A DNA stretch of 64,000 nucleotides from Folioceros fuciformis (Eukaryota). The position numbers were made by a program, and so were the translations under genes. Below the pieces are notes generated by a model that saw nothing but the letters and a program-made list of their open reading frames with translations, did not search any database and was not told the origin of the DNA. Position 1 is the first letter of the stretch. Each line of letters opens with the position of its first letter. Shown here piece after piece: positions 521 through 60,129 of this stretch. The stretch lies in assembly GCA_049999805.1 (NCBI GenBank), contig JBNGIO010006316.1, positions 319,034 to 383,033 of the forward strand. The letters are read 5' to 3'.

Positions 521-3420
521 ATGGCCGCCGAGGGCCATGTCCCCGCGGCTGCGGCCGACGCCTCTTCTCCGGGGCAGGCTCGCCGCCGGCATCGCCATCG
601 CCTTCGCCTCCGCCTGCAGCAGCTGGTGGAAAAGGTGGACTGGGCTTACGCTGTGCTGTGGGAGCTCTCTCCAGATTTCCGGTACACTAACTGTGCAAAC
701 AACGAACGACATGGGAGTGTGCTGCTGCTGCTGCTGCTGCTGCTGCTCCTGCTGCTCCTGCTCTTTTCTTTCATCTTCTTCTCAACGTTGTGTACCCATG
801 CATTCTCATTGCGTTGACCAGCCCAGCCGGCTAAGTAGGATCGGGAGGAGGATTATATATGCGTGCTGCTGCTGCCATGCAAGTTTGCAGCGTCGTTACC
901 AGGCTTGCACTTACGATTGCATTTGCCTCCGCATTGCAGCAACGTTGTGTGGGGAGACGGGTACTACAACGGACTGCCCTCCTCGCTGCCTGTGCCGTGG
1001 GCGCAGCGGGCCGCCAGGCGACAGGTGGTGCAGGAGGTGCAGGAGTCGTGGCCCGGGCTGGCGCAGACGCACTTAGGCAGCCTCAGTACCGCCGAGTGGT
1101 TTTTCCTCACCACTGCCAACCTCTCCTTTCCCTTGGGGTCTCAGGGGTACGTAACGCTCCCTCTCTCCCGCGCTCCTCTTGTTTGCTTTCCTCTCGTCTT
1201 TTACTGGAGATCGCATGCGCGGATCCGATGCATCTGCTGCTGTTTTGTAATGGAACGCAATGCAATGCGAATGCCTCTCTCACACCCGGTAGCTAGGTTA
1301 ACGCAGAACGCCAGGGCAGACCATGATGAGCGGGACCTATGACTGGATGTGCGACGCCAGCTCGCAGCACTCGGACTGCCCTCTGCATTTCACCCGCGCC
1401 AAGGTCCTTTCAAACCGCTGTCTCTTTCAATGCCGTCTTCCCTGTCTGTTTGCTCGCCCAAGTTCTCTGCGTCTGAACTGTTCTTCACCTGCATCTCGTG
1501 GCCGGGACGGTGGTCTGAACTGCACTGCACGCTGCTACTCCACCTGCTCTATCGTGGACAGGCAGCTGGAATGAAGGTGCGGCTCGGAACGGAAAGCCTT
1601 TGATTTGCTCTTGGATCAGGGCTGCATGCTTATTTATGCCTCTGTATATGGCTTGGCCTCCTCGCTCTACTAGCTAGCTAGCTGGTGCCTGATAGTGCTC
1701 AGTTCCTGCCTCCGCTGCAGACTGTACTGTGGGTTGCCACCCACGCTGGCGTGGTGGAGATGGGAAGTATCGAGGAGCAGGCCGAGGACGTGTTCCTGGT
1801 GGAACTTGTGAGGGACGCATTCAGCACTTGTAACGCGGGAGCGGTGGCCGGCCCGGCGCCGGCGTTGGAATTGTCGGCCGTGAGCGGCACAACCTTCTGC
1901 AGCACGCTCTCGGGCACCGGAGCGGATTCCGCCTACACATCGCCGCTGAGCGGGGACATGGTGGGAGAGCCGTCCACCTCCTCCTTTGGCGACGGCCATC
2001 GGGGCCTGGACGAGCAGCTGCAGGAACAGATATCGCAGGACCGGATGAGGCAGCAGCAGCAGCATCGCCTGTGGGCGGGGCCTCACTTCCTGGACGCGGG
2101 CTACGCGGACGGAGACGCAGATGCGGACGCGGATGCCGCATCTGCGTCTGCCTCTGCGTCCAATCATGGACACCACAGGTTCCAGGAGCTGCAGCTGGTG
2201 CAGCAGACGTCCCCCCCGCCGTCCCTCAACGGCTCCAGCCTGCTCACTCTGGAGGAGCAGGAGGGGGTGGAGGTGTACACCCGGGGGTGCAATTGGCGCG
2301 ACGCAGACGGGGGGACCTGCGCGTCTGGGTCGGGGTCGGGATCGGCATCCGGGTCCGGGTCTGGGTCTCCTCCCGGCCCGCTGGACCAGATGCAGCTGGA
2401 GTGCGTGGGTGGGAAGCGTGCGCACGAGTGGGACGCTCAGTTCGGGGGCCGCGCCAGGAAACGAGGGCGATCGGGTAAGAGGAATAGGGAGCCTGCTGTG
2501 GCCGGCACCAGCATCACGCACGACTTCATGGTGGTGAGGAGTTGTGACAAGGAGTGCGCCATCAACGATTCCAGCAACAACGGTGTTGCCGCTGCAGCTG
2601 CTGCGGCTGCTGCCGCTGCTGCTGCGAAGTGGGGGGCTGGAAGGCTTGTTTCCCATGCAGTAGGAGCAGGGGCGGGATCGTTGTCGGGAGCGGGATCGGG
2701 ATCATCATACACGCATGCTCCCAACGGGATGTTGCAGCTCCTGCCGTCCATTGAGAATCAGCTAGACGGGCGTCAGCACCACCCGGAGCAGGAGCAGCTC
2801 CCGCTGCCGCTTCCGGTTCCACACCCGGAGACTGAGGAGGCACTGGACCTGGCTCTGGCCCCCGCCCCTGACATGGAAGTGCGTATGGTGGATGCAGACC
2901 TGGTGGTGATCAAGTTACACTCCAGGAGCCGGCCGGGCCTCTTCGACGACATCATGTGTGCCCTTCAGGAGCTGAGAGTACAGGTGCGGGAAGCCAACAT
3001 GGGGTCCGTGGTGGGCACGCTGTTGCAGGAGTTCACTGCCAAGGTCGCCAGCTTTCTCACTCTTTCCTGTCCCGTGTCCCTGTGTCTCTGTGTCCCTGTG
3101 TCCCTGTGCTGTGTCCTCTTTCTCTCCTCTGTATCCTCTGTCATCGTGTCTCTTCGTCACCATGCTTTTGTTTCTGGGTCCATCTAGAAAGAAGTTGCTT
3201 GCCGCCGATCTGACTAACACTGGCCTGGCCTGTCCTGCCCTGGGTCCCGTCCCCCCTTTGCGTGCAGGTGCACATCTCCTTTGCGCAAATGCTCACCACG
3301 GAGGTGATAGCGGCTGCTCTCCACCTGGCCGTGGAACGGGGCAACAGACAAAGCTTGTCGCCGCACTCTGTGCCCATCTTCAAACACATACCGTCCATGC
3401 ACTCCATCCAAAGCTTATAG
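521..3420 (+). CDS. bHLH-MYC_N + C-terminal ACT-like protein (TT8/GL3/R, subgroup IIIf-like), bHLH degenerate
   Basis: Exons 521-681, 940-1146, 1307-1403, 1562-1576, 1721-3043, 3268-3420 join in frame over GT-AG introns. MYC_N motifs: LQQLV..WAYAVLW, WGDGYYNG, AEWFFL, GVVEMGS. ACT-like end: VIKLHSRSRPGLFDDIMCALQELRVQV. Confidence 0.8.
720..762 (+). repeat. (CTG)n microsatellite in intron 1
   Basis: Run of gctgctgctg, partly interrupted by ctc. Confidence 0.85.
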
Positions 3421-14050: not shown

Positions 14051-15143
14051 AGGCTTTCAGGCTCAATTTTGCAAGGGTACGCTTATAAAATCTGTGGCGT
14101 GGAGGGTAAAGGGTGGAGGTTGGAGTGGGTACAGGCATATGAGGTGTGAGGCACGTGGCAAAGGGTTTTAAGGGAAAAGCGGCGCAGGATACATGTACTG
14201 TACCGGGAAGAGCCGGTGGCACGGTGGCCGCGGTGCCGGGGCCCGGGACCCGGAGCCCAGGCCAGGCCAGGCCAGGCCAGAAGGGAGTGCAGTACAAATG
14301 AGTAAAAAGAAAGGGGAAGGGGGGGAAGGCGGTTGCGGCTCATTTATGGGGCGTGTCATGATTGCTGTTTTTGCGTGGGATGGCGTCGTCGCCGTCGCCG
14401 TCGCCGTCGCGTAGCTGCTGTCCTGACGGCGGCCCAGTCCCATTGCCGCTTTTATGACCCGACCCTCTCGTCGCTCGCCTTCTCCCATCCCATCCCTGTA
14501 CACCACCAGTAGTACCCTTCTCTACCTACGCTCATACATACGGGTGGAACTAAAGATAGTAAATCCGCCGTAATCGTACCTACTGTAATGAGGCGTGAAA
14601 TGATCATCTCTTGTCCAGTTGAGCATCGTTACCTCCCCTTTCCTCTATATATATTTGTATATGTATATCCGTAAGTACAGTCTCCTCCTTACGCCCCACA
14701 AGACAACACAACATAACACAGTCTGTCTGTCCCGGACTTCCGCTGCGTTATACGGAATAAAGAGGCAGCCAGGCCAGGTCAGTCCAAGCCAGCCCGGCCC
14801 AGCGCAACCTCTGCCGTCTCCCTTTCTACTCCTCCCCTCTCTCCCTGCTGGGGCCTTGGCTGGGCCCTCTGCTGCTGCTGCTGCTGTTCCTGCTCCTACT
14901 CCTGCTGTTCCTGCTCCTGCTCCTGCTCCTAGGCGCCAAAATCTGCTGCTCTTCCCCTGTTTCCTCTGTTCTGTGTGTCCCAGTTTCTGTTTGTTTGCTT
15001 GTGCTTCGGAGCTCTGGAGGCGAGCCCAGCATAGTGCACCCTCAGACGTCACAGCCCGTCTGCACCCGTATGCTCCTGCGTAGTGGTCTAGCGCTCTACC
15101 CCTCCTCCTCCTCCTCCTCCGCGCTTCCGCCGCGCTGCTCGTG

Positions 15144-18100
15144 ATGCCTAGGCGCCGCAAAACCGGCAGGGTAGGGGAGACGGAGCGGCAGGATGTCCCT
15201 CCTCCTGCTCCCGTCCCCGCTTCCTCTCCTACAGCATTCGACCCGGCGATGGCTGGGGAGGAGGCGCCGCCGCCGCTGCCTCCTCCCTCGCGCTACCAGC
15301 CTCCTCCTCCTCCTGCTCTTGGGAGCGGGGCCGCCGCCAGGCCGATATTCGTGTCTCGTCCCTTCAATGCTGCGGCCGTTCCTTATTCCCCGACGGCAGG
15401 CGACCCTACGCAGGTTCAGCAGCACCTACAGCCGCGCCGCTCGGTGCAGCGGTATGTGCAAATCGGGGCTCAGCCCCCACCTGCTGCCCCTCTCCATTTC
15501 GCGCCGCCGGCGGAGCCGCCCGTGGCCACATTCATGCAGCAGCTTCAATTGCAGCCTGCGGAAGCCGAGGTTGCTGTGGTGCCGCCTCCAGTCTCCACCC
15601 GCGCGCTCAGGTACCCCAGGCGGCCCGGGAAGGGAGTCCTCGGCCGCAGATGTATCGTCAAGGCTAATCACTTCTTTGCCAACCTGCCCGACAAGGACTT
15701 GCATCAGTATGACGTATGCTTCTGTGCCATACTGTGCTCCAGGCTCCCATGGTCTTTTTTTTTTTTTGGTTTCTCGCCAATTCTCGTGCTCATTGTTGAT
15801 GTGGACGTTTCGCAGGTAGCAATCGTACCGGAGGTTGCGTCCCGCGGCGTCAACAGAGCGGTCATCCGGGAGCTCATCAGCGTGTACAATGCTGACATGG
15901 GAACCAGGCTGCCAGTCTATGATGGGAGGAAGAGTCTCTACACAGCTGGCCCTCTCCCTTTTCAGCACAAAGAATTCGAAGTTAGATTAGTGGACGATGC
16001 CGAGTCTGGCAGCATGGGCAAAGCGTGAGTGAGATTTCAGCTGCTGGCTCTAGTTTTTTTCGTCTTCTTGCTTCTGTTGCTTGCTTCGTTTTTCGTTTTA
16101 GGCATTCTACGGCTTGGCAGGCCCCGGGAGAGGCCGTTTAAGATCACCATCAAGTTTGCAGCTCGGGCGGATCTCCACCATCTTGGAGAGTTCTTGAAGG
16201 GCAAGCAAGCGGACGCCCCGCAGGAAGCGTTGCAGGTTTTGGACATTGTGTTGCGGGAGCTTCCTACCACCAGGTGCTTTGCCTTTTCTTTCCCCGTTTT
16301 CTCCCTAGCCTTTTATTTTATGCTCAAGTAGGTGAGTGTTATCCAGCAAGTACGTTCACACGCGACGGAGATCCTACTTCTCTGCGGCCACTGTTGTCTG
16401 ATTATTACTTATTAGTACATTCATCTCACTGTCACTCTCTCTCCTTCTCGACCGAAGTAATCGGCTAATGTTGATGGTCCGCCTCAAGGACATTGACTGA
16501 CATATTCTTCTCAGGTACACACCGGTTGGACGATCTTTCTACTCGCCTAACCTCGGTCGCCGGAGTCTAGGAGAAGGGCTTGAAGCATGGCGAGGATTTT
16601 ACCAGAGTATTCGGCCAACCCAAATGGGACTGTCCCTCAACATTGGTACAGAAAGCCAACTCCAAAAAGTCCTGCAATGGCGATGAGTTTTGCATGGGCT
16701 AAGATTGCAATCCAAGCGGGCACTCAACAAACCACGCCGTGCTTAGAGCAGTTTTCCTTTTCGCAGATATGTCTGCCACGGCATTTCTCGAGTCCCAGCC
16801 GGTCGTTCAGTTTGTTGAGAAGCTTTTGGGGAGGCCGCTTCTTAATCGACCTTTATCTGATGTGGAGCGTGTCAAGGTAAGGCGTAATTTTCCTTGCACA
16901 CTTCAGTTCCAAAGGAGGAGCAACACTAACTCCGCAAAATGCAACTCCACCAGATCAGAAAAGCTTTACGAGGGATCAAGGTTGAGGTGACACACAGGGG
17001 CACAATGAGGCGCAAATATCGGGTTTCGGGCTTGACGATTCAAACAACCGCTGATTTGAGGTCCTCATGCCGTTGCCACATATGGTGTGATGAAGAGTAT
17101 TGATAGTAATGGGTAACTGAGTCAATCGTATTGTCTTGTCCTGTAGGTTCCCTGTGGATCAAGACCAAAATATGATGTCTGTGGCAGACTATTTTTGGCG
17201 TACGTACGAGTACAGACTCGAGAGGCTGAACCTTCCCTGTCTCCAGGTTGGCAATCAACAACGGCCGAATTACCTACCCATGGAGGTGAGCTTTTGTTCG
17301 CATCTGGTGGCAAGACGGAAGTGATCCTTAGCCGAACCACTTCTAACGCCATTATTCCCCTGCCTACAGGTTTGTAAAATCGTGGAGGGGCAGCGCTTTC
17401 CGAAACGTCTGAATGAAAAACAGATTACTGCTCTTCTCAGTATTACATGTCAGAAGCCTTGTGATCGTGAGAGCGACATCCGGAGAGTATGCCCTTTGAG
17501 CAGCGCTTTTCATTGCTGCTTGCGTTTTCAAAAAATTCAGTGCTGTATGTCCATTCCACACCTAACGCTAGTGAGTGTTCCCACTTCCCCCAGACCGTTC
17601 AACAGAACGACTACGATCGTGACAGGTTTGCTCAGGAGTTCGGTATTAAAATCAGTAGGGACTTGGCTACTGTCGAGGCACGTATATTGCCGGCCCCATG
17701 GGTTAGTATCGTCGAGCACCACAATTTTTTCTCCAACGCAATTGTCATTCACTCTGACAACATTTTCGGTGTGTAGCTGACTTACAACGATTCTGGAAAG
17801 GAGAAAGAGTGTCAACCCGCAGTTGGACAGTGGAATATGTTGAACAAAGTCTGTAATCTTGTTGCCAGCTGTTTTTTCATTTTTAGAATCCTTTTCTTGG
17901 TGTATGTGGTTTATTCATTGGCCTTGCGGTTTTGCTCAGAAAATGGTGAATGGCGGCAAAGTTGCACACTGGGCGTGTGTTAATTTTTCACGGAACATTT
18001 CTACTTGTGTAGCATCTGACTTCTGCAAAAGGCTGGCTGATATGTGTGAAATATCCGGCATGGTACATATCCCTGAGCTCTTGCTGGTCACAGTTGCTGA

Positions 18101-22520: not shown

Positions 22521-25032
22521 TCAATCCTCACATACACGGAGGTCTGGAGACTGCGGGAGAGCCACATAACCTATGGCCTCCAACTCTGCAGACACTCTCT
22601 CAAGTTTGGTGTAAACCTCTTTAACTTCTGGGTGCGAAAGATCATCTGCATGAAATGAGTGTACCAGGTTGTGCACCTCGATCCAGCTGCGACCAGGCTC
22701 CTTCCGCAACCCTGCTTCCTTCATCAGCTTTCTCACTCGTCCTACTTCATCCAGCCTCCCAGCTCCTGCGTAGAGATTTGATAACAACACATACACAGCA
22801 GGGTTCCGTGGCTGTAACTCGAGAGCACGTTGTGCCGCATAATTTCCTAAAAGTATATTGCCTCGAGTAGTACAGGCACCAAGCAAGCCCCTCCATATGA
22901 CATCGTTTGGTCGAAACGGCATCTGATTGATGAAATCCAACGCTTCTTCAAGGTGCCCTGCACGACCAAGTAGGTCCACCATGCAGGCATAATGCTCCAT
23001 CTGAGGAATAAGTTCATGGTCTTTTATCAATAAGTCGAAGTATGCACGGCCTAAATCCACAAGACCACCATGGCTGCATGCAGATAGTACAGACACAAAT
23101 GTTACTTGATCTGGCTTCATTCCTTCCAGCTGCATCTGCTTGAAGAGAGAAAGGGCAACCTTCGCCCTGCCGTGCTGTGCATACCCTAAAATCATTGCAT
23201 TCCATGACACCAGGCCCCGTGCTGGCATTGCATCAAACACCTGTCGTGCATGATCAATGCTCCCGCATTTTGCATATGTGTCCAGCAGAGTCGTCATCAC
23301 TGTTACATTGTTCTCGAAACCCTTCGAGAGCACTGCCTCATGGATTCCTTTCACCTCTTCAAGAGCCCAGAGCTCAGTGCAAGCTCGAAGGATTCCGATA
23401 AAAGTCACTTCACTCTCCGTTACACCTGTGTGCTGCATTTCTTTGTAAAGATGCAAAACCTTTTGGGCATGCCCTAGCCGACCATACCCCATGATCAAAG
23501 AATTCCATGATACCACATCTTTTTCACGAGCAGAGGTGAACACCAGTTCTGCATCCTCCACGCTACCACATTTCACGTACATGTCAATCAGTGCATTGCT
23601 CACAAAAAGATCTGACCCATTTTCCGCCCGACCTATACGTGTATGAACCCTCTTGCCCTCTTCCAATGCTGCTAAACTTGCACATGCTTGAATAGCTGCC
23701 ATCACAGCGACCTTCTCTGGAGTGACACCTTCTTGTTCCATCGCATTAAACAATTCTAGGGCCTGCTGCCCAAGTCCATGCTGTGCATATCCTGCAATCA
23801 TCACAGACCAAGAAACGAGGTCCTTCTTGTGAAGCTTGTCAAACACTTGACGAGCCGAGACAATACAGCCACACTTGGCATACATGTCAATTAGAGCATT
23901 GCTCACAAAGTCGCCTGCCTCCACACCAGCTTCGACAGCTAGAGAATGTATCCACTTCCCATCCTCAAGATCTGTTTGTTCGACACAAGAAGAAATAGCA
24001 TTGAGGAAAGTCACCCGATTGGGTCTCACTCCATCCTCAAGCATTCTTCGGAACAGCATCCGGGCTTCCTTGTAAAGTCCCTGCGAAGCATAAGCTCCAA
24101 TCAGACAGCTCCAGACTACCACGTCTCGTATCTGCATTTGCTCAAAAACTTCTAGAGCATCCCGTATATTCCCACATTTTGCATACATGTTCACAAGATT
24201 GTTTCCAACGAAGTTATCTAGCTGTAAATCCCTTTGTCTAATCTGGTCATGGATCCTTCTGCCCTCTGCCAAAGCCTTGTTGCTGGCACACACACAGAGA
24301 ATGTGAGAAAAAGTACATCTATCAGGAACGACCTGGTCCTGCTGCATCCTGTCAAACAGTCGGAAAGCCTCCTCGCCATTCCCAGCCTGTTCATATCCAT
24401 GTATCAATGCATTCCACGTGACAACATCTCTCGTAACCATCCCGTCAAACAACCTCCGAGCCTCATCTACTTTTCCACATTTCACGTAAAGAGTGATGAG
24501 GTGATTGCCTAATTCAGCATTCAGCTCGACTCCGTGTGTCCTGATGCGAGCATGAACTCTCCGGCCCTCTTTCAAAGCTCTCACTTTGATGCACCATCTC
24601 AGAAAAGAGCCACAAATCTGTCGATATGTGTCCTGACTCTTGGATTTCATGCACTCTAGACATGCCAAAGCCTCCTCAAATCTTCCATCTTGACAAAGTG
24701 AGCTCACATCCTTCGAATGCAAGGAAGGGTCACCATCATTCTGAGGCCTGCAATGATCACGTACTACCCGTTCACAAACTTCAACACAATGTATGCGACC
24801 ATCAGGATACTAATCTCGATTTCCCACAGCACCATAGGTAAATGCATGCAATTGCTCTCGCAATTGCGACTGTAAGAAAACGGTACCCGTCTTCCGCCAG
24901 GGATACAGACCCGTTATTTCTAAGGCCGTTTGCTTTGACCACAGCCAGAACAACACCCCGACTTTCTCCCCGTCCAGACCTCATCGAACCTAGACTGGAA
25001 CACGTTGAAATTGGACACGCGTTTCTCAGCAT
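22521..25032 (-). CDS. PLS-class PPR protein, E1-E2-E+ (PG box), truncated DYW; organellar RNA editing factor-like
   Basis: Exon 1 at 25032-24887 (transit-peptide-like) splices in frame to 24747-22521. PLS repeats (LIDMYAKCG, DVVSWN), E domain HYACMVDLLGRAG and PG box KEPGRSWIEV...SHP...GYV. Confidence 0.92.
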
Positions 25033-40911: not shown

Positions 40912-41380
40912 TTTCTACCAGATTCTAAGTCCGCGGCAAATTTGCAAGCCTGAAGGGCAGCTTCAAAGGAGACGATCCTGCCCCTTCACGGCTTGTACTC
41001 TGTTGTTTTTGTGTACATGGTTTCTACGTCTTTTTTATAACAAAGTCAACAGTTCTTCCATTGTACGCCTCTTTCCTAGCGAGCATAGCATGCACCGCAT
41101 ATGATGTCATGCCGTGTCATGCGTGGACAGGACACTTGTTGCATCGCATATACACGCTGGCCACTAACTCGATTCATAGGAGTCATCGGCAGGCGAGTAA
41201 AGAAGGAAGAGGATGCATCTCCTAGAGCTGGAAGCGGATATTGTGGCGACAAATTGCTCTGGACCCCGGAATCCGGTGGAATCACAGGCGGTACGGAAAA
41301 GGAAGGCTCTGTCTGCCTGACTTCCGACTAGGGGAACCTCAGCACGTCCTCGCCGAACAGGGTTTTGTTTGGATGTGGAG

Positions 41381-44146
41381 ATGGATGACCCCCCCGGGTC
41401 TGCAGGATGCGTAAGGATAACATCTGGCACCGTGAGCAGGCTATGTCGTGAAGGAAATCTCATTGAGGCTGTGGAGGCTCTGGGAGTTCTGGTGCAGACA
41501 GAGTGTTGCATTTCCAAGCCCGTGTTTTACTCTGTGCTGAAGAAATGTGCATTGGAGAAGGACCTGATTCTGGGCCGCCGCGTCCATGCTCTCATGGTGA
41601 GAAATGGATACCAGTCTGACAACTTCTTGTGCAACCACGTTCTGAGGATGTATGCTTCCTCTGATAGGCTGGAAGACGCGATGGATGTGTTTGAAGGCTC
41701 TCCTGAACCAGATGCCTTCATGTGGTCTTCCATAATTTCTGCGCATGTTAAACGGGGGATGGACAAGCAGGCCTTGCAGCTGTATCATCAGATGCGCAGG
41801 TCAACTGTGACGCCGGATGGCCACGTGTTTGTGGCAGCCCTTCAAGCTTGTGGAAGGGGATCAGATTTGGCGGCTGGGCAGCAGGTACATGCAGATGTGT
41901 TGGCAACTGGAGTTGAACCTGATTTATTTGTCTGGAATTGTTTGGTGGATATGTACGCAAGATGTGGCAGCTTGGAAGACGCTCGAAGATTGTTCGACGG
42001 AATTGGTCAGAAAGATGTGGTGACGTGGAATGCCATGTTCGCAGGGTATTCCCAGCAGGGCATGGGACAGGAAGCCCTTCTCCTTTTCAGTGCTATGGAA
42101 GAAGAAGGCATCTCTGTACCTACTGCCGTAACATATGTTTGCCTCCTCCAAGCGTGCGCAATTGTCGGCACCTCAGCTTTGGAGACGGGGAAGGGGATTC
42201 ATAGACAGATTCGAGAACGAGGACATGAAGGGGATGAGTTTCTTGGAAACAGTTTGGTGAACATGTATGCTAAGTGCGGAAGCTTAGAGGAAGCTCAGAG
42301 AGTGTTTGACAGGCTTGCTAAGAAAGATGTAGTGACATGGACCGCCATGATAGCAGGGTATTCCCAGCAGGATATGGGCCAGGATGCCCTTTGTCTTTAC
42401 AATGGTATGCAAAAGGAGGGCATCGCTGTACCCAATCCCGTGACATTTGTGTGCCTCTTGCAGGCGTGTGCAAGTGTGGGTGCTCAAGCCTTGGACATGG
42501 GGAGGCAACTTCATGCGAAGATTAGAGAGCGAGGTCATGAAGATGATGTGTTTGTTGCCAACAGTTTGGTGAACATGTATGCAAAGTCTGGCAACTTGGA
42601 AGAAGCTCGCAGAGTATTCGACGGCATATGTCAGAAAGATGTTGTGACGTGGAATGCCATGATAGCTGGATATTCCCAGCAGGGCCTTGGCCTCAAAGCC
42701 CTCTCTCTTTACGGTGCTATGCAAGACGAAGGGATCATTGTGCCCGATTCTGTGACATTTGTGCGCCTCTTACAGGCATGTGCAATTGTGGGTACCACAG
42801 CTTTGGAAAATGGTGAACAACTTCATGCACAAATTAGGGCACAAGGACTTGAAGTTAATACATTTGTAGCGAGCAGTTTGGTCCACATGTATGCAAACTG
42901 TGGCAGCTTGGACCAAGCCCATAGAGTGTTTGACGGACTATGTCAAAAAGATGTGGCGACGTGGAATGCCATGATATCAGGGTATTCCCAGCAAGGTATG
43001 GGCCAGGAAGCCCTTCGTCTTTACTGTGCCATGCAAGAAGAAGACATTGTAGAGCCTGACAACGTGACATTCGTGAGTCTCCTGCAGGCATGCGGAAACC
43101 TGGCAGCTTTGCATCTAGGAAGGCAGCTACATGCAGAGATCAAAGGAAAGGGGCTTGAAGCTGATGTGTTTGTAGCTGGCAGTCTGATAAACATGTATGG
43201 TAAATCCGGGAGCGTGGGTGATGCACAGCAGGTATTTGATGCGCTGAAGGAAAGAGATGTTTTTGCATGGAGTGCACTTATTGCAGGTTACACCAGCAAA
43301 GGAGACAGTGAAGTGGTCTTCAATCTATTCCGGAGAATGAAGGACGATGGAGTCCACCCAGTCGGCATCACCTTTCTCAGCATACTAACAGCATGCAGTC
43401 ATGCTGGGCTGGTGAAGGAGGGGAGAGAGTATTTTGAGAGTATGAGCAGACACTACAGCGTCGCTCCTACGGTGGAGCATTACACATGTATGGTGGATCT
43501 CCTCGGTCGTGCAGGCCGCGTGGATGAGGCTCTAGGTTGGATAAGGACAATGCCTATACCTCCTAATGTTTCAGTTTGGCACGCTCTGTTAGGTGCTTGC
43601 CGAAAGTGGAGCAACGTTGAAGTTGGGCGGCATGCTTTTGACCAAGCAATTAAGCTAGACAAGACAGGAGCGGCAGCATATGTGTTGATGACAAATATTT
43701 ACACAGCCGCGCAGATGTGGGAGCAGGCACAGGAGATCCAGGCCAGGAAAAAGGAAATTAGGGCATGGAAGCAGCCGGGGCAGAGTTGGTGGACAGGCGT
43801 GGAAGGACTAGTTCATAGCTTTATGGTTGGAGTTAAGAAGCTTCCTAAGAGTGAAGCAAGGGAGATGGAAGTGGTTTCCAAATTGAAGAGAAGCCAACGT
43901 GTCTCACATTCGTATATATCATCGCCGGCTCACGTACCTGATTGGAGGAAAGGCGGTGTATTTGGGGATAGCAGCGGAAAATTCTCTGTGCATAATAAAA
44001 TGCATACACCGGAGGCTTCTTACATGATTTTTGTGAAATTTCTAAGGCTTTCCTTCAATTGTCTAAGAGGAACCAAGTTTGTATTCGCAGTGCAAAAGAC
44101 TTCGCGACTTTCGTTGCTAACATTGGCTGTGCTTGCCGCTATCTAG
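41381..44146 (+). CDS. PLS-class PPR protein, E1-E2, WW-type box, degenerate DYW domain
   Basis: Intronless ORF of ~920 aa with highly similar tandem PLS triplets, HYTCMVDLLGRAG and WKQPGQSWWTG. The start may lie further upstream. Confidence 0.93.
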   Translation: MDDPPGSAGCVRITSGTVSRLCREGNLIEAVEALGVLVQTECCISKPVFYSVLKKCALEKDLILGRRVHALMVRNGYQSDNFLCNHVLRMYASSDRLEDAMDVFEGSPEPDAFMWSSIISAHVKRGMDKQALQLYHQMRRSTVTPDGHVFVAALQACGRGSDLAAGQQVHADVLATGVEPDLFVWNCLVDMYARCGSLEDARRLFDGIGQKDVVTWNAMFAGYSQQGMGQEALLLFSAMEEEGISVPTAVTYVCLLQACAIVGTSALETGKGIHRQIRERGHEGDEFLGNSLVNMYAKCGSLEEAQRVFDRLAKKDVVTWTAMIAGYSQQDMGQDALCLYNGMQKEGIAVPNPVTFVCLLQACASVGAQALDMGRQLHAKIRERGHEDDVFVANSLVNMYAKSGNLEEARRVFDGICQKDVVTWNAMIAGYSQQGLGLKALSLYGAMQDEGIIVPDSVTFVRLLQACAIVGTTALENGEQLHAQIRAQGLEVNTFVASSLVHMYANCGSLDQAHRVFDGLCQKDVATWNAMISGYSQQGMGQEALRLYCAMQEEDIVEPDNVTFVSLLQACGNLAALHLGRQLHAEIKGKGLEADVFVAGSLINMYGKSGSVGDAQQVFDALKERDVFAWSALIAGYTSKGDSEVVFNLFRRMKDDGVHPVGITFLSILTACSHAGLVKEGREYFESMSRHYSVAPTVEHYTCMVDLLGRAGRVDEALGWIRTMPIPPNVSVWHALLGACRKWSNVEVGRHAFDQAIKLDKTGAAAYVLMTNIYTAAQMWEQAQEIQARKKEIRAWKQPGQSWWTGVEGLVHSFMVGVKKLPKSEAREMEVVSKLKRSQRVSHSYISSPAHVPDWRKGGVFGDSSGKFSVHNKMHTPEASYMIFVKFLRLSFNCLRGTKFVFAVQKTSRLSLLTLAVLAAI

Positions 44147-51730: not shown

Positions 51731-52419
51731 TAATGTATAAAGTGTAGTGTACCATTGTAGCTGCACCAACTCCATACATATCAGCAATAATATGTGGGGA
51801 TAAACCACCAGCAAGGCTGTGAAACACCATTGCCACAGCACGACCTAGTTGTAAAGGTTCCCGTAAAGAAGACAGGACACCAAAATAGAAAGAGGGAAGG
51901 AAAACTCTATTGACTAAAATGTGTGTGAGAAGGTGACATTATATAGATACCGGCCGTATTATAAAAAGATAATTACCATTAAATCCATATTACCAATACC
52001 GGGCGTGGACGGGACGGGCGTCCTGGGTTTGGTGCCTGACCATTAAATGTAGGCCTGCGCATGTGAAACTGCGGGACACTGCGCCGTGACAGCCTAACAG
52101 CAATCCATCACCGCGCTATCGCAATTTTTCTTTGTTTAGCCTTCGTAATGGTAACTATAACCGCTCTGTTCATTTTGTCCCCTACGTTGTGAACGGTGTT
52201 TGAGCCACAGTTCCCTACAGTTTTCCTAACTTAAAAAAATCCAGTTTCCTACAGTTTTCCTACCTCAGAAAAGTCCAGTTTCCTACGTTTTCGTAACTTG
52301 GAAAAGTCCAAACTGAACTGCGCAATCTCGGCCATGTGTCGTTCCGATGTGAGAGGCCCTTGATGTGAAGGGTGTCTCACAGGTACTGTGTATGAAGTGA
52401 CAGCCGACGGTTGTTTGGC

Positions 52420-52427
52420 TTCCCGCG
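52420..52427 (+). promoter_or_regulatory. E2F-like site upstream of ORC4
   Basis: TTCCCGCG about 50 bp upstream of the ATG. It is an imperfect match to TTTCCCGC. Confidence 0.45.
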
Positions 52428-52475
52428 CAAACGCTCTTCCTTTCTTCAGCGAATACCAATGCTGACGCCCTTGCA

Positions 52476-55400
52476 ATGCGGACTCGCAGCCGAGGAGGTG
52501 ACCCCCAGCTCGATCCGATTCCTCCCCCCACGCCCAAACGTACGCGCACGGGTAGCAAGCAGCATCAGCAGGAGGAAGAGCAGCAGCCGCAGCAGCAAGA
52601 GCATCAGCTTTTGCAGCAGCAGCAGCAGCTGAAGCAACTGCGTCAGGAGAAGCAGCAGGAGCTAAAGCAGCAGCAGCAGCAGCAAGACCAGGAACAAATG
52701 CGGGATCAAGAGCAGCAAATGGCGGAGGAGCAACAGCAGGCTGTTGCGGATCCGGCGGCCGTCAGCTGGAGTGTGGAGTTCTTGCGGCGCAGGCTTTGTG
52801 CTCTCCCGGACACCGAGGATGCAGACGCGAAACACCTCCATCTGCTTGCCACTGATTTCGCTCCCGACACCTGTAGGCAACTTACCGACCTCTTAACCGA
52901 TACAATTCTCTACCGTCACAACAACTCCGCACTGCTCCTAGGCCCGCGAGGGTGTGGTAAATCCTTTGTGGTGGAGCATGTCTTGCGAGACCTCCGGAGG
53001 GGCCATATCGACCGCTTCTCAGTTGTAAGCTCGGCTCTTCGCTTTCGCCCCTCATGGCAGCTGCTTTTTTGGCTCCGGCTGGCGCCCAGGATCTCGCCTC
53101 GGCACTCATTGGCCTATTTGCTGTTCGCTGTGCGCAGGTCCGTCTCAATGGCCTTCTTCATCACGATGACCGTTGCGCATTCAAGGTCCTCCTTTTATGT
53201 CCTACGCATGTGCTTTTTGGAGATTCCCAGCACTCCACATCTTCGAAACTGATTGAAGCTGTGGGATATGCAGGAGATAGCCAAGCAGCTTTGCATGGAA
53301 CACCACTTGTCCTTCTCCAACTCGGTATTCACATCGTCGAATTTTCACCTGTGTTTGTGTGTTAGGAGTGTGTCTGCAAGTGCACCAGTTCTCTGCTAGC
53401 GATGGGTTACTGGGGTTGATGCACGCCGTCGTTGTTTGTATGCACTGGTTGCACATCTTGGTCCGCAGACTGAGCTCTACCTGGTGCTCGCTGTCTGTTT
53501 GTGCAGGCCTCGGTTGACGAAAACCGTATTTTCCTATCAGCAAGTCTCAGGCAAGGACCTTCTGTTGAGGCACTTGAGCAGAGAACTTTGTCATCCGGTG
53601 TTGCCTGTGCCGAAAAGAGATATGTTTTACCATTGCCACCCTTGCTCTCGCAGGGACTCTGCTCTTGAACAGAAAGCGGTTGTCTTCATCCTCGATGAGT
53701 TTGACCTCTTTGCGCAGGTAATTGTGACTGTAATTTGGCACGGAGAATTATCTGAGGATATACCAAACAGCTTAGCAAGTTTTCAGGCTTGCTTGCGTTA
53801 CTCTCATGCTGCTCACATTGCGAAGGTGCTATCTGACCATCTCTGTGTCCAATGTGCATCTGGTCACAGAGGTCTCAGCAATTCCTACTCTACAATGTGC
53901 TTGATGCCATGCAGTCCCCAGAATGTCAAGCTGCGATTGTCGGCCTCAGCTCCCGCTTTGTGCGTTGTGTTCCAGCCCACCATGTTTCTGTTGTTTATAA
54001 ATGATTGAAGCTCATGCCTGTTGACTTCGAACTGTATGACCAGTGACTTTGAAGGAGCCTCTTTGCAGGATGCAGATCTGCTCTTAGAGAAACGAGTGCG
54101 ATCTAGGTTTTCCCATCGCAAGTTGCTTTTATTTCCCCCGACGTTTGAAGCCTCCTTAGGGTGAGGATATGAGAATTTATGAATGTGATTTGCTACCCCG
54201 ACGTGGGGTAGTCTTCAATCATGCCGCTTAAGGTCCGTGCACCTGCACAGTCAAGGCCATCAGCTGACCCTTATCTCCCATGCTGTGATCTATTAGGCAC
54301 CTTCTTAAGTCCTTGCTGCTTCCAGTTGGGGTGGATTTTCCTCACAAGGAGTTCAGTGCCATCTTCAACCTGAATTCTGCAGTATCCTCCAATTGAGCTA
54401 GCGAGTATGAGTTGTTTACTTGTCCCGAGCGGAAGAAAGCGCTCGCGTTTGAATGCGAGCTGTCTGTTGTGAGCATGCCCTAGAAGCGTCTTTGACTTTC
54501 TTAGAGAGTACTTGAAGACAAGGGTGTGAAGCGGGCTTTACGTCGCTTCTTTGAGATGGATCTGAGTTATCAGCAAATTTTTGATCTCGCGTAAGTGATG
54601 TTTTGGTCTGCTTTTTCGGGTTTGGTTAACTATTCACTGAAACCCTCCCTTTCATTTTTTATCTGATTAGTCTGTAGCTGCACTGATGGGATTTGAGTGA
54701 AGACGTGGCGTTCAACAGATTTCGGATTGTTTCCAACATGGACCGGAATGTGGGCCTTATATCAGCCAAAGATGTTGTTGCAGCATGCTCGACTCTCAGA
54801 TGCAAGCCTAAAATGAGCTGTTTAATGGGTAAATTTTCTTGATGTGGTTATAAGAGTTCCTTTTGTGCCTGCCTGTTTACATTTCACAGTGATCCTGAAA
54901 CTGGCCGTCATCTGGGCAGGATTGTCTGTGCTGGAGCTCTACCTCCTTGTTTCTATGAAGAGGCTGGAGAGAAAAGAGCGTGAAACCTACAACTTTGAGG
55001 CAGTCTTCATTGGTATGCAAATTTTGCAGCAGACAGTGGCTTTGTCAAATGAGGAAAATCACGTTGGTTTCTGGCCCCCTTGTTTACCGTGGAAGCTGCA
55101 ATTAACCTATGCACGTGGGTTGCGGGGATGCACTTTGCTATGCAGAGTACGAGCAGCTTCGTGCGGTGCACAATACGTGTGATGTTTATTCTCGACAGTT
55201 TGCCCTAAGAGTATGTACTGATTGTTGACTGCGGATGTGCGATGCTGGCGAAGTCACCTTCTCATAATTAATTTTCTGTGCAGGCATTTGAGCATCTACT
55301 GGAGCGAGAGCTCATTGCTTTTAGTGACTCCAGAGGAAGCACCGCCAAGGAGTTTAGGGCTGTGAAGCTCATCATCTGCACACAGGAGCTTGATGAGTGC

Positions 55401-55642
55401 TTAAGAGCAAGCACATGTTGCCCGGTAGTTCTCCTCTAACCATCTTTCAATTAATTTCTATTTTATCCGAAGTTATTTTATCTCTACTATCCCCCAGTCG
55501 TTGTCCCATCCTCTCGTACGGGAAGCCTGCAGATTCGTGGGATTGCTTTAAAACTTTTCAGAGAGGGATGGGGTTCGCTAATCTGGTTTTGTGTGAACAG
55601 ACTATCCTTCTTCAGTGGAGCTCTCACGAGACGTTTAAGTAA
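52476..55642 (+). CDS. ORC4: origin recognition complex subunit 4, with a polyQ N-terminus
   Basis: Walker A LLLGPRGCGKS, VRLNGLLH, Walker B VFILDEFDLFAQ, LLEKRVRSRFSHRK, LSVLELYLL, AFEHLLERELI. About 15 exons. Confidence 0.93.
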
Positions 55643-56600
55643 ACAGAGGCTCAAACGTGTCGAGGCTCGGCCTTGGAGAAGGGTCTCTTCCCACTAGCCC
55701 AAAACACCTGCAACAGCAGTTCTCCTTGTCTTGCAGATTCCTGGAAGGTCGCTGTGAACACACGGCCCTCTAGTGCAAGCGTAGGGGTTGTATGCTGGAC
55801 CCCATCCAACACCGTTTGTTCAGAACTTGGCAGAACAAGGTGAGGTAGGCATGACGGTAACCACACATCACCTTTCCTCCTAGTGACATTCTCGGTTATG
55901 TCCAACCTCTCTGTGCATAATAGACACCGCAACCATATGCTCGACTAGTTTTGGTTGCTGGTCTTTTTCGAAGGGGAAAAGTTTGCAGTAGTCTATGGGA
56001 AGGTTTCTGCTGACAGCGTCCTGTGGTGGCAAAGCTTGCCCCTGGAGGAGGCGCTGGGAGAACTACCTTCAAGCGAAGGCTTGTGAGTTGGGCATCACAA
56101 AGCTGGCGTGGAGGCATTGTTCTGTCTGAGGACGTCCAGCTTCAGGCAAAGTGCGGCTCTGGCTTAACGAATCTTAGAACTTTAATGACTTCGGTGATTC
56201 ACGTAGATGTTAATGTATCATCAGCGGCCGTAAATATATCGTTTAGGCTGAGATGTTCTACGTCCTGAAGGAGCTCGGATTGGATATGCTCTGCCGAAAC
56301 AGAATTCGGCCGGTTCAGTTTTGTCAACCGAAGGTGGCGGACTGGCATTTGCGTGCGCATCACGGTTGAAGAGCACAAGTTGGCACGAGGACCTTACATC
56401 ACAAGATTGTCCGACAGAACTGGAGCCCACGGATAGTGGCGTTGGACACATGTCACAAGTGGGAAGAACTGATGAGACTAGGCTGAAGATTGCAGGCAGC
56501 GCTTCAGATTGGAGGCTTCTCTTCAAACAATTGCAACAAATCGTCGGCGACCTCCGACTTGTGGATTCCAGATCAGCCAGCTGCGCATTACCCGATATGG

Positions 56601-56692
56601 CGTGCAGAAGTTGTTTAGCCAGAGGACCTCCAACTCGCAGAGCTGTAGCAAAGTTGTTAAGTTGGAGGTCCTCTAGTTGAACAATTGCTACG
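56601..56692 (+). ncRNA. putative pre-miRNA hairpin 1
   Basis: agttgtttagccagaggacctccaact pairs with agttggaggtcctctagttgaacaatt over 27 bp (3 G:U, 1 mismatch). Confidence 0.65.
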
Positions 56693-56736
56693 CGTCAGAA
56701 TTGAAACCAATCTGCACGGATCACCCAAGCTGCCGT

Positions 56737-56835
56737 GCAGCAGTTGTTTGGCCAAAGGACTTCCAACCCGCAGGCTTTAGGTCTCCGGGACAGCAGACCT
56801 CAAGGTTAGAGGTCCTGTGGTTAAACAATTGCTAC
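56737..56835 (+). ncRNA. putative pre-miRNA hairpin 2
   Basis: gcagttgtttggccaaaggacttccaacc pairs with ggttagaggtcctgtggttaaacaattgc over 29 bp (4 G:U, 2 mismatches). Confidence 0.65.
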
Positions 56836-56940
56836 AGGCCACAAGCAAACTGCTGCTGGATAGGCACCGAACTCGTCTGCACATCCAGATGAAGCTGGCA
56901 GCGCCGCGTTACCCAATTTGGCTCGGACAAATTTGTGGCA

Positions 56941-57043
56941 TGTAGAAGTTGTTGAGCCAGAGGACCTCCGACCTGGAGGCGATCGAGGTCTCTGGCATAG
57001 CGGAACGCGAGGTTGGAGGTCCTCTGGTTAAACAATTGCTACA
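56941..57043 (+). ncRNA. putative pre-miRNA hairpin 3
   Basis: tgtagaagttgttgagccagaggacctccgacct pairs with aggttggaggtcctctggttaaacaattgctaca over 34 bp (3 G:U, 2 mismatches). Confidence 0.68.
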
Positions 57044-57701
57044 AGACATAAGCTACCTGCCAAAGAATGCTGACTTCGGATACATCTGCATCTCCAAGCA
57101 TCCGTCTTCGGTCACCAATGCATACTTCCCCGAACTTCCAGAGAACCTCCAACGACTGAGACAACGGGAGCCCATTTATTCCGTCCGCGAATAACTTTGA
57201 GGGCAAGCCCTAAATACCATAAAAAGACACTACCCAAATTTGGGTATTACCGTCTTTCGTCACCACAAGAAAAGACCCGTAACTGACTTCTAAGTTCTGC
57301 CATGAGCCTTCTGCGAAGATGCAGGAAGCACGACGCGACAAAATCAGCAACAGGGAAGACACTGTTGGAAGGCAGTGGCACGGTGACGACGCTACTGAGG
57401 CGTGAGGCACTGCATGTTGCAGCTGCGGCGATGGCGGCAAGCAGCAAGTAGAGCTGAAGATCCGAGAGCTGCTGATGTAGTTGCAATTCTTCTTGCAAAA
57501 CTATTCCCATAACAGTTGTTGTTTCTGCGAAGCCGCAGCCGCCCCGCAGGTGGCAGCCGGTTATCAGCGGAACACGGCGGAGAGCCGTGATGCCTTCACG
57601 AAAGCTGGTGACCCGACCAAGTCTCACGCCATCGGCACCAAGTGTAAAGCCGGAAACTGTACGGTCACCGGCCAGCTCCCGCCCTCGAAACGGTCCTGTC
57701 A

Positions 57702-57727
57702 GGCGGGAGATTTCGAATTTTGGCGCC
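57702..57727. promoter_or_regulatory. paired E2F sites upstream of TIPIN
   Basis: GGCGGGAGA (reverse complement TCTCCCGCC) and TTTTGGCGCC, 70-90 bp upstream of the ATG. Confidence 0.65.
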
Positions 57728-57794
57728 AAGTAAATACTGGCTTTAGGGCTGATGGAGACGAGGGGAGGAAGTTTATGCCCTTCGGCAGAAGCTG

Positions 57795-58749
57795 ATGCCT
57801 CAAGCTGGCACGATGCAGAGCAGGCAAAAACACCAAGAGGCAAAGCCAACAGGGTGCTTCAAGTGTGGCAAGCCCGGGCATTGGTCCAAGGATTGTCCAT
57901 CTGCCTCATCTCCCGCATCAGGGTCTGCCGTCCGCCCTGCCGCGTCTTCTCAGCCCGACAAGGGTAAATTCGCTTCCTCCAATTCCACAGGACCAGTGGC
58001 AGCGGTGCCGCGCAAGCGACCAAATTTGACGCCCGATCTGCTTCTCTCCGAGGATGGACTGGGGTACGTGCTCCAGCACTTCCCGCGGCTGGTTCACGTC
58101 CGAGGTCGCGGACATGAGGCAAGTAGCGCCCTCCTCTCCTCCTGGAATCCCGCTGGTAAGTAGGCTTCATCCGCACCAAGAATCTGACCTGGATCGACAC
58201 CTGCAGGTGGACGATTTGGAAAAGCTCTTAGAGGCTTACATGTGTTGGCATTCCCGCTTGCTGCCGTACTTTTCCTTCGATCAATTCGTGGACAAGGTCG
58301 AGAAGCTTGGAGCCACAAGACGAGTCCGGGTATGTATCACAGTGTTGCCTCCAAGTGAAGCGTGAGTTGCATCGGTGTGCCTCTCATGCAAGATGACATC
58401 AGCTGTGCATTCGGGAGCTCCGGGAGAAGGTGGAAAGGGGAGACAAAACAGGATCGCAAATGCAGAGAGACCAGGCAGCCACAGACCCGGATTCCGAAGG
58501 TTGGTGCTTTCCGGCAGCCACAGTCCATCCTGTGCCGTCAATTAGGGATCCGTTTCCAATCACTTAGCTCGGACTTCGGATTCATCTCCAGGTGCGGAGG
58601 CGGGGAATTTGTTTTCAGGTTTGGCCGTCCCCCTCCTCAACTCTTGCGAGCAGGACGATGATGACCAAGGCGAAGCGGAGGAAAGTTATCCTGACAACGC
58701 GGTGGATGATGCGGTGTACGAGGAGTTGTACCAGCAGGCAATCACATGA
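57795..58749 (+). CDS. TIPIN: replication fork protection protein Swi3/Csm3/TIPIN with an N-terminal CCHC zinc knuckle
   Basis: CFKCGKPGHWSKDC, RPNLTPDLLLSEDGL, GRGHE|VDDLEKLLEAYMCWHSRLLPYFSFDQFVDKVEKLG and an acidic tail. Four exons. Confidence 0.88.
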
Positions 58750-59230
58750 TAATTCTCTACTCAGATGTGTACTTGGATGTGTACCTCGATACCTCAGGCT
58801 TTGTACGTATGGAGAGAGAATTTTCAGGGTTCGGTTGGAAACTTGTTAACTTGTCACTAACTTGTTAACTTGTTCTTACGTGAGCCTGTAGCAGCAATTT
58901 TTTTACTAATTAAAGTATTGTTTCTGGAAGCAAAATTTAGAAGTTTTCATTTTTTGGAGAAATTTCGATTAATATGTAAGAAATTTTCATTTAGCCTATT
59001 TTTTCAACATGTGGTGGTAGGGTCGCAGATCCTGGGGAGATGGAATTCCCTTTTAGGGCGGTCCGACTGTACTTGCTAATTCTACCTACCCTTTTGCTTC
59101 GCTTCGCACTTCCGTAAATAGAAATTTCTTCTACGTGCCATGTGGACTACGTTTCTAACGTACGTTTATACTTATGGTATATGTTCATAACCTAACTTGG
59201 AGTTCGGTCTCGGTAACCAGCGTCAGGGAC

Positions 59231-59238: not shown

Positions 59239-59647
59239 CACGCCTGGCCTCCACATCCTTTCATTCGTTCGCATTTCCTTTCTCCTCTTAGGCTACAGCG
59301 GATTGCGCTGCCGAGCCCTTCGCTCTCCCTCGCGAGGTGCCTTCTCATTTCACATACCTGCCAAATGTGCCTGACATTGTCAGTGTGGTGACCCATAGCC
59401 TTCTTGAGCCCAAGGCAGGTTTAATTCGTAGTTCGCAGATTAGCTAGCTGGTGATCCTATCTGTGGGTCGGGATTTGTTGTCGTTGTAATTGGGGATGCG
59501 GTGGTTTCTAATTTGCTGTGGTGTGCCGTGGATGCAGGGTTTTGGTTAGAAGCGGGCGCGATCTTTTGGTTGGAGGCTACCTAGAATTTTTGATCCGACG
59601 CGAGCGCGATCTTTTGGTTCGAAGCGTCCGCAATCTTTCGATTCCAG

Positions 59648-60129
59648 GCGTCCGCGTAGCTACATCTAATACTTCAGAACTGGAAAAGCAGGCAGGCGTC
59701 CGGTCGGTGCTCGCGCTCTATGCAGCGCTTGCATCGGGGGATGGGGATAGTGTGACCGAGTTGGTGGACGCAGACTTGGAGTGGTGGTTTCACGGCCCAC
59801 CGGACCACCAGCATATGATGCTCCTTCTTACTGGGGTCACTTCCTGTGACACCTTCTCCTTTCAGCCTGTGCGATTAGGAGCGGTAGCGGACAAGGTCTT
59901 TGTGGAAGGTAAAGGGACTTCCCCGGGAGTATTCTGGGTTCACATCTGGACGGTGAAGGACGGCCGTATATCTCAACTCCGGGAGTACTTCAACACAGCG
60001 GTGACCGTGACCGACCTCAAGCCTGCCCAAGGCCTTCACAAGTCCAATTCCTGCCGAACTTTGTGGCAGAGCGAGCTGTGCAAGGGCCAGGGTGGAAGCT
60101 CTCTGCCCGGACTCATCGTCACCGTCTGA
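59648..60129 (+). CDS. wound-induced WI12/Wun1 (SnoaL/NTF2-like) protein; start codon unresolved
   Basis: LYAALASGD..DLEWWFHGPP.HQHMMLLLTG, FWVHIWTVKDG.ISQLREYFNT, WQS, SLPGLI. Confidence 0.9.

Follow-up and report, generated by a model that had tools for sequence, protein, structure and literature searches.

Three short inverted repeats lie in tandem between two genes of the window (the whole stretch of 64,000 nucleotides analysed here), and their arms read as the short peptide (L)EVLWLNN, antisense on one side and sense on the other. The question raised by this locus is whether these repeats are a MIRNA-like source of small RNAs directed at the gene family from which the arms descend, or whether another kind of inverted sequence accounts for them. 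The three hairpins are the following:

56593 to 56703, + strand: hairpin H1, with 5' arm 56598-56635, 3' arm 56660-56697 and a loop of ~24 nt; 38-nt arms, 79% complementary
56729 to 56846, + strand: hairpin H2, from the repeat and folding analysis, with 5' arm 56731-56769 and 3' arm 56803-56844
56932 to 57052, + strand: hairpin H3, with 5' arm 56933-56974 and 3' arm 57010-57051; 42-nt arms, 81% complementary

All three fold far better than expected, the + strand reaching -57.4 kcal/mol in H1 (z -8.9), -56.3 kcal/mol in H2 (z -5.0) and -64.9 kcal/mol in H3 (z -8.4), and for each hairpin none of 200 shuffles equalled the native + strand fold. The corresponding energies of the - strand are -44.2, -54.5 and -48.0, which leaves an advantage of 1.8 to 16.9 kcal/mol to the + strand. 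Between the two arms of each hairpin, complementarity is 79-81% over 38-42 nt, and a 5' arm set beside the reverse complement of any 3' arm differs at 6-9 positions. When 38 columns of each stem are compared, 29-31 are Watson-Crick pairs, rising to 34, 33 and 34 of 38 with G:U pairs included, and the mismatches are exclusively symmetric (1x1). Among the hairpins, the 5' arms are 86-89% alike and the 3' arms 80-85%, a divergence of 11-20%.

The arms are confined to this locus. Across the 64-kb window, a 24-nt arm pattern allowing up to 3 mismatches finds 4 sites, all within 56607-57039 (shuffle expectation 0.00), and a scan with a 34-nt arm finds six strong copies (27-34 of 34 letters), all within 56603-57043 and alternating between antisense and sense. 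These six copies are paralogues of one another and, therefore, do not amount to six independent sightings of the motif. Weaker traces of the same unit lie on either side:

56109 to 56142, - strand: decayed antisense-type arm remnant, 23/34 in the arm scan, 73% repeat match; no hairpin (z 0.04)
56505 to 56538, + strand: decayed sense-type arm remnant, 22/34 in the arm scan; no hairpin (z -0.25)
57138 to 57153, - strand: antisense-type arm fragment of 16 nt, 3' of H3, 94% repeat match; no hairpin (z -0.27)

The outer remnants, with 22-23 of 34 letters kept and folds like those of shuffled sequence, illustrate the course that decay takes here in the absence of constraint.

The cluster occupies a spacer of ~2.1 kb, 956 nt past the stop codon of an ORC4-like gene and ~724 nt ahead of the RNA contig of the next gene, which is zinc-knuckle/Swi3(TIPIN)-like. 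The two genes, and the one RNA contig that touches the hairpins, are as follows:

52401 to 55642, + strand: ORC4-like gene (AAA_16; ORC4_C at 33.3 bits against a cutoff of 25.3), with its stop codon at 55640-55642
57776 to 58929, + strand: downstream gene, spliced, encoding a CCHC zinc knuckle; its weak Swi3/TIPIN match scores 21.6 bits, below the cutoff of 25
56824 to 57012, no strand assigned: contig of run X3, 189 nt, 0 differences, depth 2.4, running from the end part of H2 to the beginning of the H3 3' arm

The ORC4-like gene has GT..AG introns at ~55012-55144, 55211-55283 and 55424-55599. Contigs of run X3 skip 55211-55283, 55424-55599, 58329-58401 and 58498-58589 with GT..AG ends, and we take this run, whose label as RNA is a guess, to contain RNA because it includes such spliced contigs of both flanking genes. 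One further joint in the downstream gene, 58116>58205, has AG..GC rather than GT..AG ends, perhaps through an alignment offset.

Within the spacer, two other X3 contigs of low depth cover 56303-56466 and 57340-57532, and contig cover is absent at 56467-56823 (H1 and most of H2) and at 57013-57339. Depth is 2.4-3.6 for the spacer contigs as against 9-25 at the neighbouring genes, and the contigs carry neither strand nor end information. In addition, the RNA contig of the ORC4-like gene extends to 56264, at least 620 nt beyond the stop codon and toward the hairpins. The spacer contigs could stem from a primary transcript of the cluster, from transcription running on out of the ORC4-like gene, or from residual DNA. 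A TATA-like TAAATATAT is located at 56231-56239 on the + strand, just upstream of the contig boundary 56264/56303, and could act as promoter for an independent primary transcript.

Other features of the window were recorded along with this setting. An open reading frame with an Argonaute N-terminal domain (ArgoN, E 5.9e-19) at 15084-16028 on the + strand places an AGO gene ~40 kb from the hairpin cluster; no relation in sequence was found between this frame and the hairpin arms. Two long intronless frames encode PLS-class PPR proteins with E motifs, at 22521-24809 (- strand, also E+) and at 41321-44146 (+ strand), and a frame at 59512-60129 (+ strand) carries a wound-induced WI12/SnoaL-like domain (E 2.3e-23), its 5' part holding a 24-nt tandem repeat of 4.9 copies with 67% matches at 59540-59656. 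A further frame, at 1682-3187 (+ strand), shows weak similarity to the bHLH-MYC N-terminal and ACT-like domains of plants, and GC content is markedly high (~60%) over the first 4 kb. The window is land-plant DNA, a sequence search placing the PPR in Streptophyta, and its overall GC content (~49%), its introns of 73-176 nt and its PPR genes resemble the figures given for a hornwort genome in the excerpted text of PMC7027989.

Comparison with a related organism, here called organism B, sets the cluster apart from the rest of its spacer:

56571 to 57225, no strand: block of 655 nt collinear with one contig of organism B, 77 letters differing and 14 in gaps

Identity over this block is ~88%. On the two sides of it, alignment at a likeness of at least 85% covers only ~157 of the 922 nt upstream (spacer 55649-56570) and 277 of the 596 nt downstream (spacer 57226-57821). 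Among the gap letters listed, 13 of the 14, the indels fall at 56656, 56891, 56896, 57001, 57119, 57121 and 57125, that is, in the loop of H1, between H2 and H3, in the loop of H3 and 3' of H3, with none in the six arms; with 37% of the block taken up by arms, the chance that all 7 listed indels miss them is ~0.04. Contigs of organism B also match 56936-56969 with 3-4 differences.

These observations bear on a reading in which the locus is non-functional debris, namely a decaying array of inverted gene fragments whose hairpins are by-products, which is transcribed through read-through only and which yields no regulatory small RNA. We consider this reading rather unlikely. The visible decay of the flanking units and the low RNA depth across the spacer are in line with it, and so are the stop codon in one arm and the breaks in all frames. 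Covariation in the stems, being weak, leans the same way: among 34 main-stem pairs compared across H1-H3, 1 change is two-sided and compensatory, 5 are one-sided and preserve pairing through G:U, and 4 are broken. Transition mismatches in the three 38-nt stems, counted on the + strand, are of the G:U type 12 times and of the A.C type 4 times (p=0.038, raw), which favours a structured + strand; once positions shared among paralogues are merged by hand count the figures become 8 and 3 (p ~0.11), an excess that is merely suggestive after allowing for shared ancestry. Selection on the hairpin structure is, on these comparisons, suggested without strong evidence. Against the debris reading, however, the cluster is the sole contiguous island in a spacer that otherwise aligns poorly with organism B, its listed indels spare the arms, and the stems keep 29-31 of 38 Watson-Crick pairs (33-34 of 38 with G:U) despite the 11-20% divergence among paralogues. 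Moreover, plant Dicer-like enzymes normally dice a transcribed, near-perfect stem of ~40 bp, which likewise counts against an inert locus.

With regard to what the arms encode, the preliminary description had proposed that the 5' arms are antisense to a leucine-rich-repeat (LRR) coding motif and vary at wobble positions. The readings themselves are borne out. The reverse complement of 56610-56633 is TTG GAG GTC CTC TGG CTA AAC AAC, or LEVLWLNN, and the 3' arms of H2 and H3 read LEVLWLNNCY as had been claimed, while the 3' arm of H1 translates as LEVL*LNNCY, with an internal stop. The differences GAG/GAA, CTC/CTT and CTA/CTC among the 5' arms are all at third positions and synonymous in the motif frame, and the two other changes, CTA>CCA and TTG>TCG, are at second positions, corresponding as had been noted to A>G on the 5'-arm strand and to G:U pairs in the stem. 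One of the nominally synonymous pairs, CTT versus CTG in H2, disrupts a base pair.

The core LEVLWLNN is intact in 3-4 of the six arm copies. It departs to LEVLWPNN in the 5' arm of H2, to S at the first L in the 5' arm of H3 and to a stop in the 3' arm of H1, and beyond it the six copies continue, in the sense direction, with FCTP, CCTA, FYMP, CYAS, CYRP and CYKT. The proposed diversification at wobble positions is seen in the 8-codon core, where third positions account for 7 of 11 minimal changes (p=0.039 in a binomial test over six paralogous copies, the region having been picked post hoc), but it does not extend to the 12 codons of the stem (7 of 20, p=0.52). No open frame spanning the hairpin cluster was found, and Pfam searches of the frames across it returned nothing convincing by way of an overlapping coding gene.

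A source for the arms is found outside the window. The organism's own DNA run holds only 2 further matching contigs (3 records in all): one of 418 nt matches the 33 nt of 56598-56630, in a 5' arm, at all but 3 positions, and one of 2235 nt matches the 34 nt of 56808-56841, in a 3' arm, at all but 2. Both diverge from the window past the match, and the junctions of both recur in RNA run X3; the sister species, organism B, has a contig of 9027 nt for an external locus. Given that these external matches (2-3 differences) are closer than a 5' arm is to the reverse complement of any 3' arm (6-9), the 5' arms resemble one member of the family in antisense and the 3' arms another in sense. By hand translation of 30 letters on each side, the frame of EVLWLNN stays open in both members, with the residues S-P-D-F-R upstream and P-A-W-V-D-A downstream common to the two flanks; a comparison of 31 codons shows 10 with synonymous changes alone and 8 with non-synonymous ones, and the divergence of the flanks is on this count coding-like.

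Where the 5'-arm-like member is concerned, DNA and RNA agree over the first 11 letters of the flank and part company at what reads, in sense, as a ...CAG|G acceptor, which suggests that this member yields a spliced mRNA complementary to the candidate small RNAs of the 5' arms. The intron reading is weakened because the DNA of organism B contains the 'spliced' form contiguously, and the sense orientation of the external copies is taken from the open frame together with one acceptor-like junction. To the eye, the external flanks also bear a faint resemblance to the window sequence that precedes each 5' arm and to that which adjoins the 3' arms of H2 and H3 toward the loop. As in MIRNAs that arose by inverted duplication, the similarity between arm and gene (33-34 nt) is longer than the candidate small RNA and one arm is antisense. 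In line with this notion, the origin by inverted duplication of a target fragment put forward earlier fits the apparent extension of external homology past the arms on both sides. The two external matches had also been considered as the arms of another compact hairpin and this was rejected: 2167 nt of contig precede the 3'-arm-like match and contain no other one. The donor family was not found when 5.8 billion proteins were searched with a profile built on five arm peptides.

The same contigs weigh on whether the units could be MITEs or another transposon relic, in which case the external matches would be additional copies. With their 100-120 nt and terminal inverted arms of ~38 nt, the units are of MITE size, and one matching contig of organism B stands at about four times the usual depth (206 against ~50). 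The many dispersed copies of a MITE were nevertheless not found in the 64-kb window, with 0 further copies, nor in the own DNA run, with only 2 other contigs; furthermore, the external copies are open, coding-like and expressed, and no target-site duplication was seen by eye around the units. We hold a transposon origin to be highly improbable.

Whether the donor family encodes LRR proteins is a separate matter, to which we assign somewhat less than an even chance. The octapeptide itself fits LxxLxLxx(N/C), the preliminary description having given the core as LxxLxLxN, but Pfam gives it no backing and the external members have R or D in place of the first leucine; by hand translation they also show no hydrophobic residue at position 11. 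Pfam searches with the 6 arm peptides returned 0 families at E up to 10, a weak test with peptides so short, and a profile search of the PDB with the arm peptides gave 0 matches. In protein searches with the arm-peptide profile, the longer search scored 4030 candidates with one match (P0001, E 0.57) and the near search 396 candidates with two (P0002, E 0.18; P0003, E 2.6). P0001 and P0002 are unrelated generic LRR proteins that share the octapeptide, and P0003 is an equally unrelated, hypothetical protein with 0 Pfam domains. A metagenome pattern scan matched a contig for a bacterial 2-oxoacid oxidoreductase, discarded as chance. The downstream residues V-D-A-x-L-x-x-L could presumably belong to an LRR of the cysteine-containing subtype, provided that two residues are inserted.

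The link to NLR genes or to miR482/2118 that had been drawn for the locus finds no support: no Rfam family matches, and the encoded (L)EVLWLNN(C/F) is not the P-loop. As regards membership of the miR482/2118 superfamily, the locus showed neither a match to a precursor model nor complementarity to the P-loop.

We next consider the small RNAs that the hairpins are predicted to release. The candidates on the 5' arms are these:

56611 to 56631, + strand: predicted 21-nt 5p small RNA of H1, 5' U, 20/21 paired, antisense to the EVLWLN codons
56744 to 56764, + strand: predicted 21-nt 5p small RNA of H2, 5' U, 19/21 paired
56949 to 56969, + strand: predicted 21-nt 5p small RNA of H3, 5' U, 20/21 paired

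The predicted 5p species all start with UUGUU, ~17-18 nt above the base of the stem, where base-to-loop processing by DCL1 is expected to place them. The one from H1 falls within 56598-56630, the stretch matched with 3 differences by an external expressed locus. Among the three variants 4 positions vary, 3 of them opposite third positions of codons and the remaining one an A>G change compatible with G:U; the three jointly could therefore cover synonymous variants of the donor family.

Structurally, the hairpins measure 111-121 nt and their candidate 21-mers are 19-20 of 21 paired with partner bulges of 0-2 nt. The criteria of Axtell and Meyers (2018) reportedly ask for a precursor below ~300 nt and a duplex with at most 5 mismatched positions, at most 3 of them in asymmetric bulges, and also for precise excision, with miRNA and miRNA* reads that have 2-nt 3' overhangs and dominate the locus in replicated small-RNA libraries. 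Many 21-mers of these stems have the structure of a miRNA duplex, and the symmetry of the stem mismatches means that the structure gives no hint of a 22-nt product or of a phasiRNA trigger. An Rfam scan of the window gave no family at the gathering score and, at permissive E-values, only the unrelated generic hairpin models mir-1278, MIR473 and mir-9243 (E >=0.0025). A full-text literature search with 13-nt pieces of the arms returned only unrelated primers; it covered main texts, while novel miRNA lists usually sit in supplements. In this regard, the excerpted text of the hornwort genome paper (PMC7027989) reports 180 novel mature miRNAs, among which this locus could be included if the organism is a hornwort.

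A different outcome of dicing would be a heterogeneous set of hairpin siRNAs made by DCL4 or DCL2, as in a proto-miRNA, or a product in which the 3' sense arm is loaded, and the donor mRNAs would then not be targets. Stems of 38-50 bp have room for two dicing registers and would suit such a set; 21-mers starting with U occur in the 3' arms too (for instance 57013-57033), and the 3' arms are also conserved among paralogues, at 80-85% beside 86-89% for the 5' arms. The position of the 5p candidates above the stem base, as for base-to-loop DCL1, speaks against this outcome, which we judge quite unlikely.

Taken together, it is likely that the hairpin cluster is gene-derived and probably small-RNA-producing. 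The interpretation that we favour, with slightly better than an even chance of being correct, sees in the locus a MIRNA-like cluster of the + strand that is young, polycistronic and lineage-restricted, was formed from inverted gene fragments and would repress the family that donated them. In such a model, two fragments from a small family of expressed paralogues, one antisense and one sense, would have landed side by side, and the overlap of the staggered fragments (~38 nt, comprising EVLWLNN and 4 more codons) would have become the stem. The hairpin unit would then have multiplied in tandem, three units staying intact and the outer ones decaying. Its transcript would be diced from base to loop, most likely by DCL1, into 21-nt 5p species, and these strands may base-pair with mRNAs transcribed from the donor genes in sense, leading to cleavage or repression. 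The overall interpretation offered in the preliminary description is partly supported, in that the hairpins are real, + strand-biased, conserved in organism B and derived from a gene family with expressed complementary members; its LRR identity is somewhat less likely than not and its NLR/miR482 connection is unsupported.

A bolder version, which we deem unlikely, is an independent tuner of a gene family comparable to miR482: a three-hairpin polycistron born from two inverted LRR-type paralogues, with wobble-varying 5p strands covering synonymous variants, maybe in a non-seed plant. The excerpted text of PMC5026261 traces small-RNA control of NBS-LRR genes back only to gymnosperms. If this bolder version were true, an LRR-directed case of bryophyte grade would shift the logic of such control to an earlier date and onto another motif.

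The consequences of the favoured model are more modest. Should small RNAs confirm it, the locus would be a snapshot of MIRNA birth, with intact and decayed units, arms traceable to two expressed paralogues and retention in organism B, and would help to date and test the inverted-duplication model outside seed plants, with no new mechanism involved. If no small RNAs are made, the hairpin locus would be ordinary gene-fragment debris.

The system to which the locus had been likened, miR482/2118, targets the P-loop of NLR genes and co-varies with it at wobble positions, according to the excerpts of PMC5026261 and PMC4651229. H1-H3 resemble it in offering a small set of related guide candidates antisense to a short encoded motif, with variants mainly opposite third positions. 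They differ from it in having no sequence relation, in a motif that is EVLWLNN and not the P-loop, in only 4 variable positions and in stems that lack the asymmetric bulge giving 22-nt triggers in miR482/2118. If the donor family were LRR, spruce would offer a further likeness by description of the target, a miRNA candidate aimed at LRR-coding sequence: in the excerpted text of PMC4651229, miR3709 and miR3710 target the LRR-coding region of NB-LRR genes, miR3710 at multiple sites, and the arms of spruce MIR482 precursors still encode an NB-LRR-like peptide. As to its arrangement, the cluster finds a parallel in the polycistronic MIR482-MIR1448 cluster of Populus described in the excerpts of PMC3475693. 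Like it, the present locus holds several paralogous hairpins within ~450 nt, probably on one transcript, represented here by fragmentary RNA contigs.

With respect to origin, the comparison is with MIRNAs that arose by inverted duplication, of which MIR161 and MIR163 are examples. This origin of plant MIRNAs is the model of Allen et al. (2004), as presented in the excerpts of PMC4651229 and PMC5026261. The present locus shares with such MIRNAs arms homologous to expressed genes, similarity that runs past the candidate mature RNA, one antisense arm and restriction to a lineage. It deviates from the basic model in that the arms of H1-H3 resemble two paralogues, the unit is tandemly triplicated and the small RNAs are here predicted only. 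The two-paralogue arms fit the variant that starts from an inverted pair of related genes, a route drawn for NBS-LRR-derived miRNAs in the excerpted text of PMC5026261. Since the origin fits the inverted-duplication model and precedents exist in spruce and in MIR482, a locus of this kind is already known.
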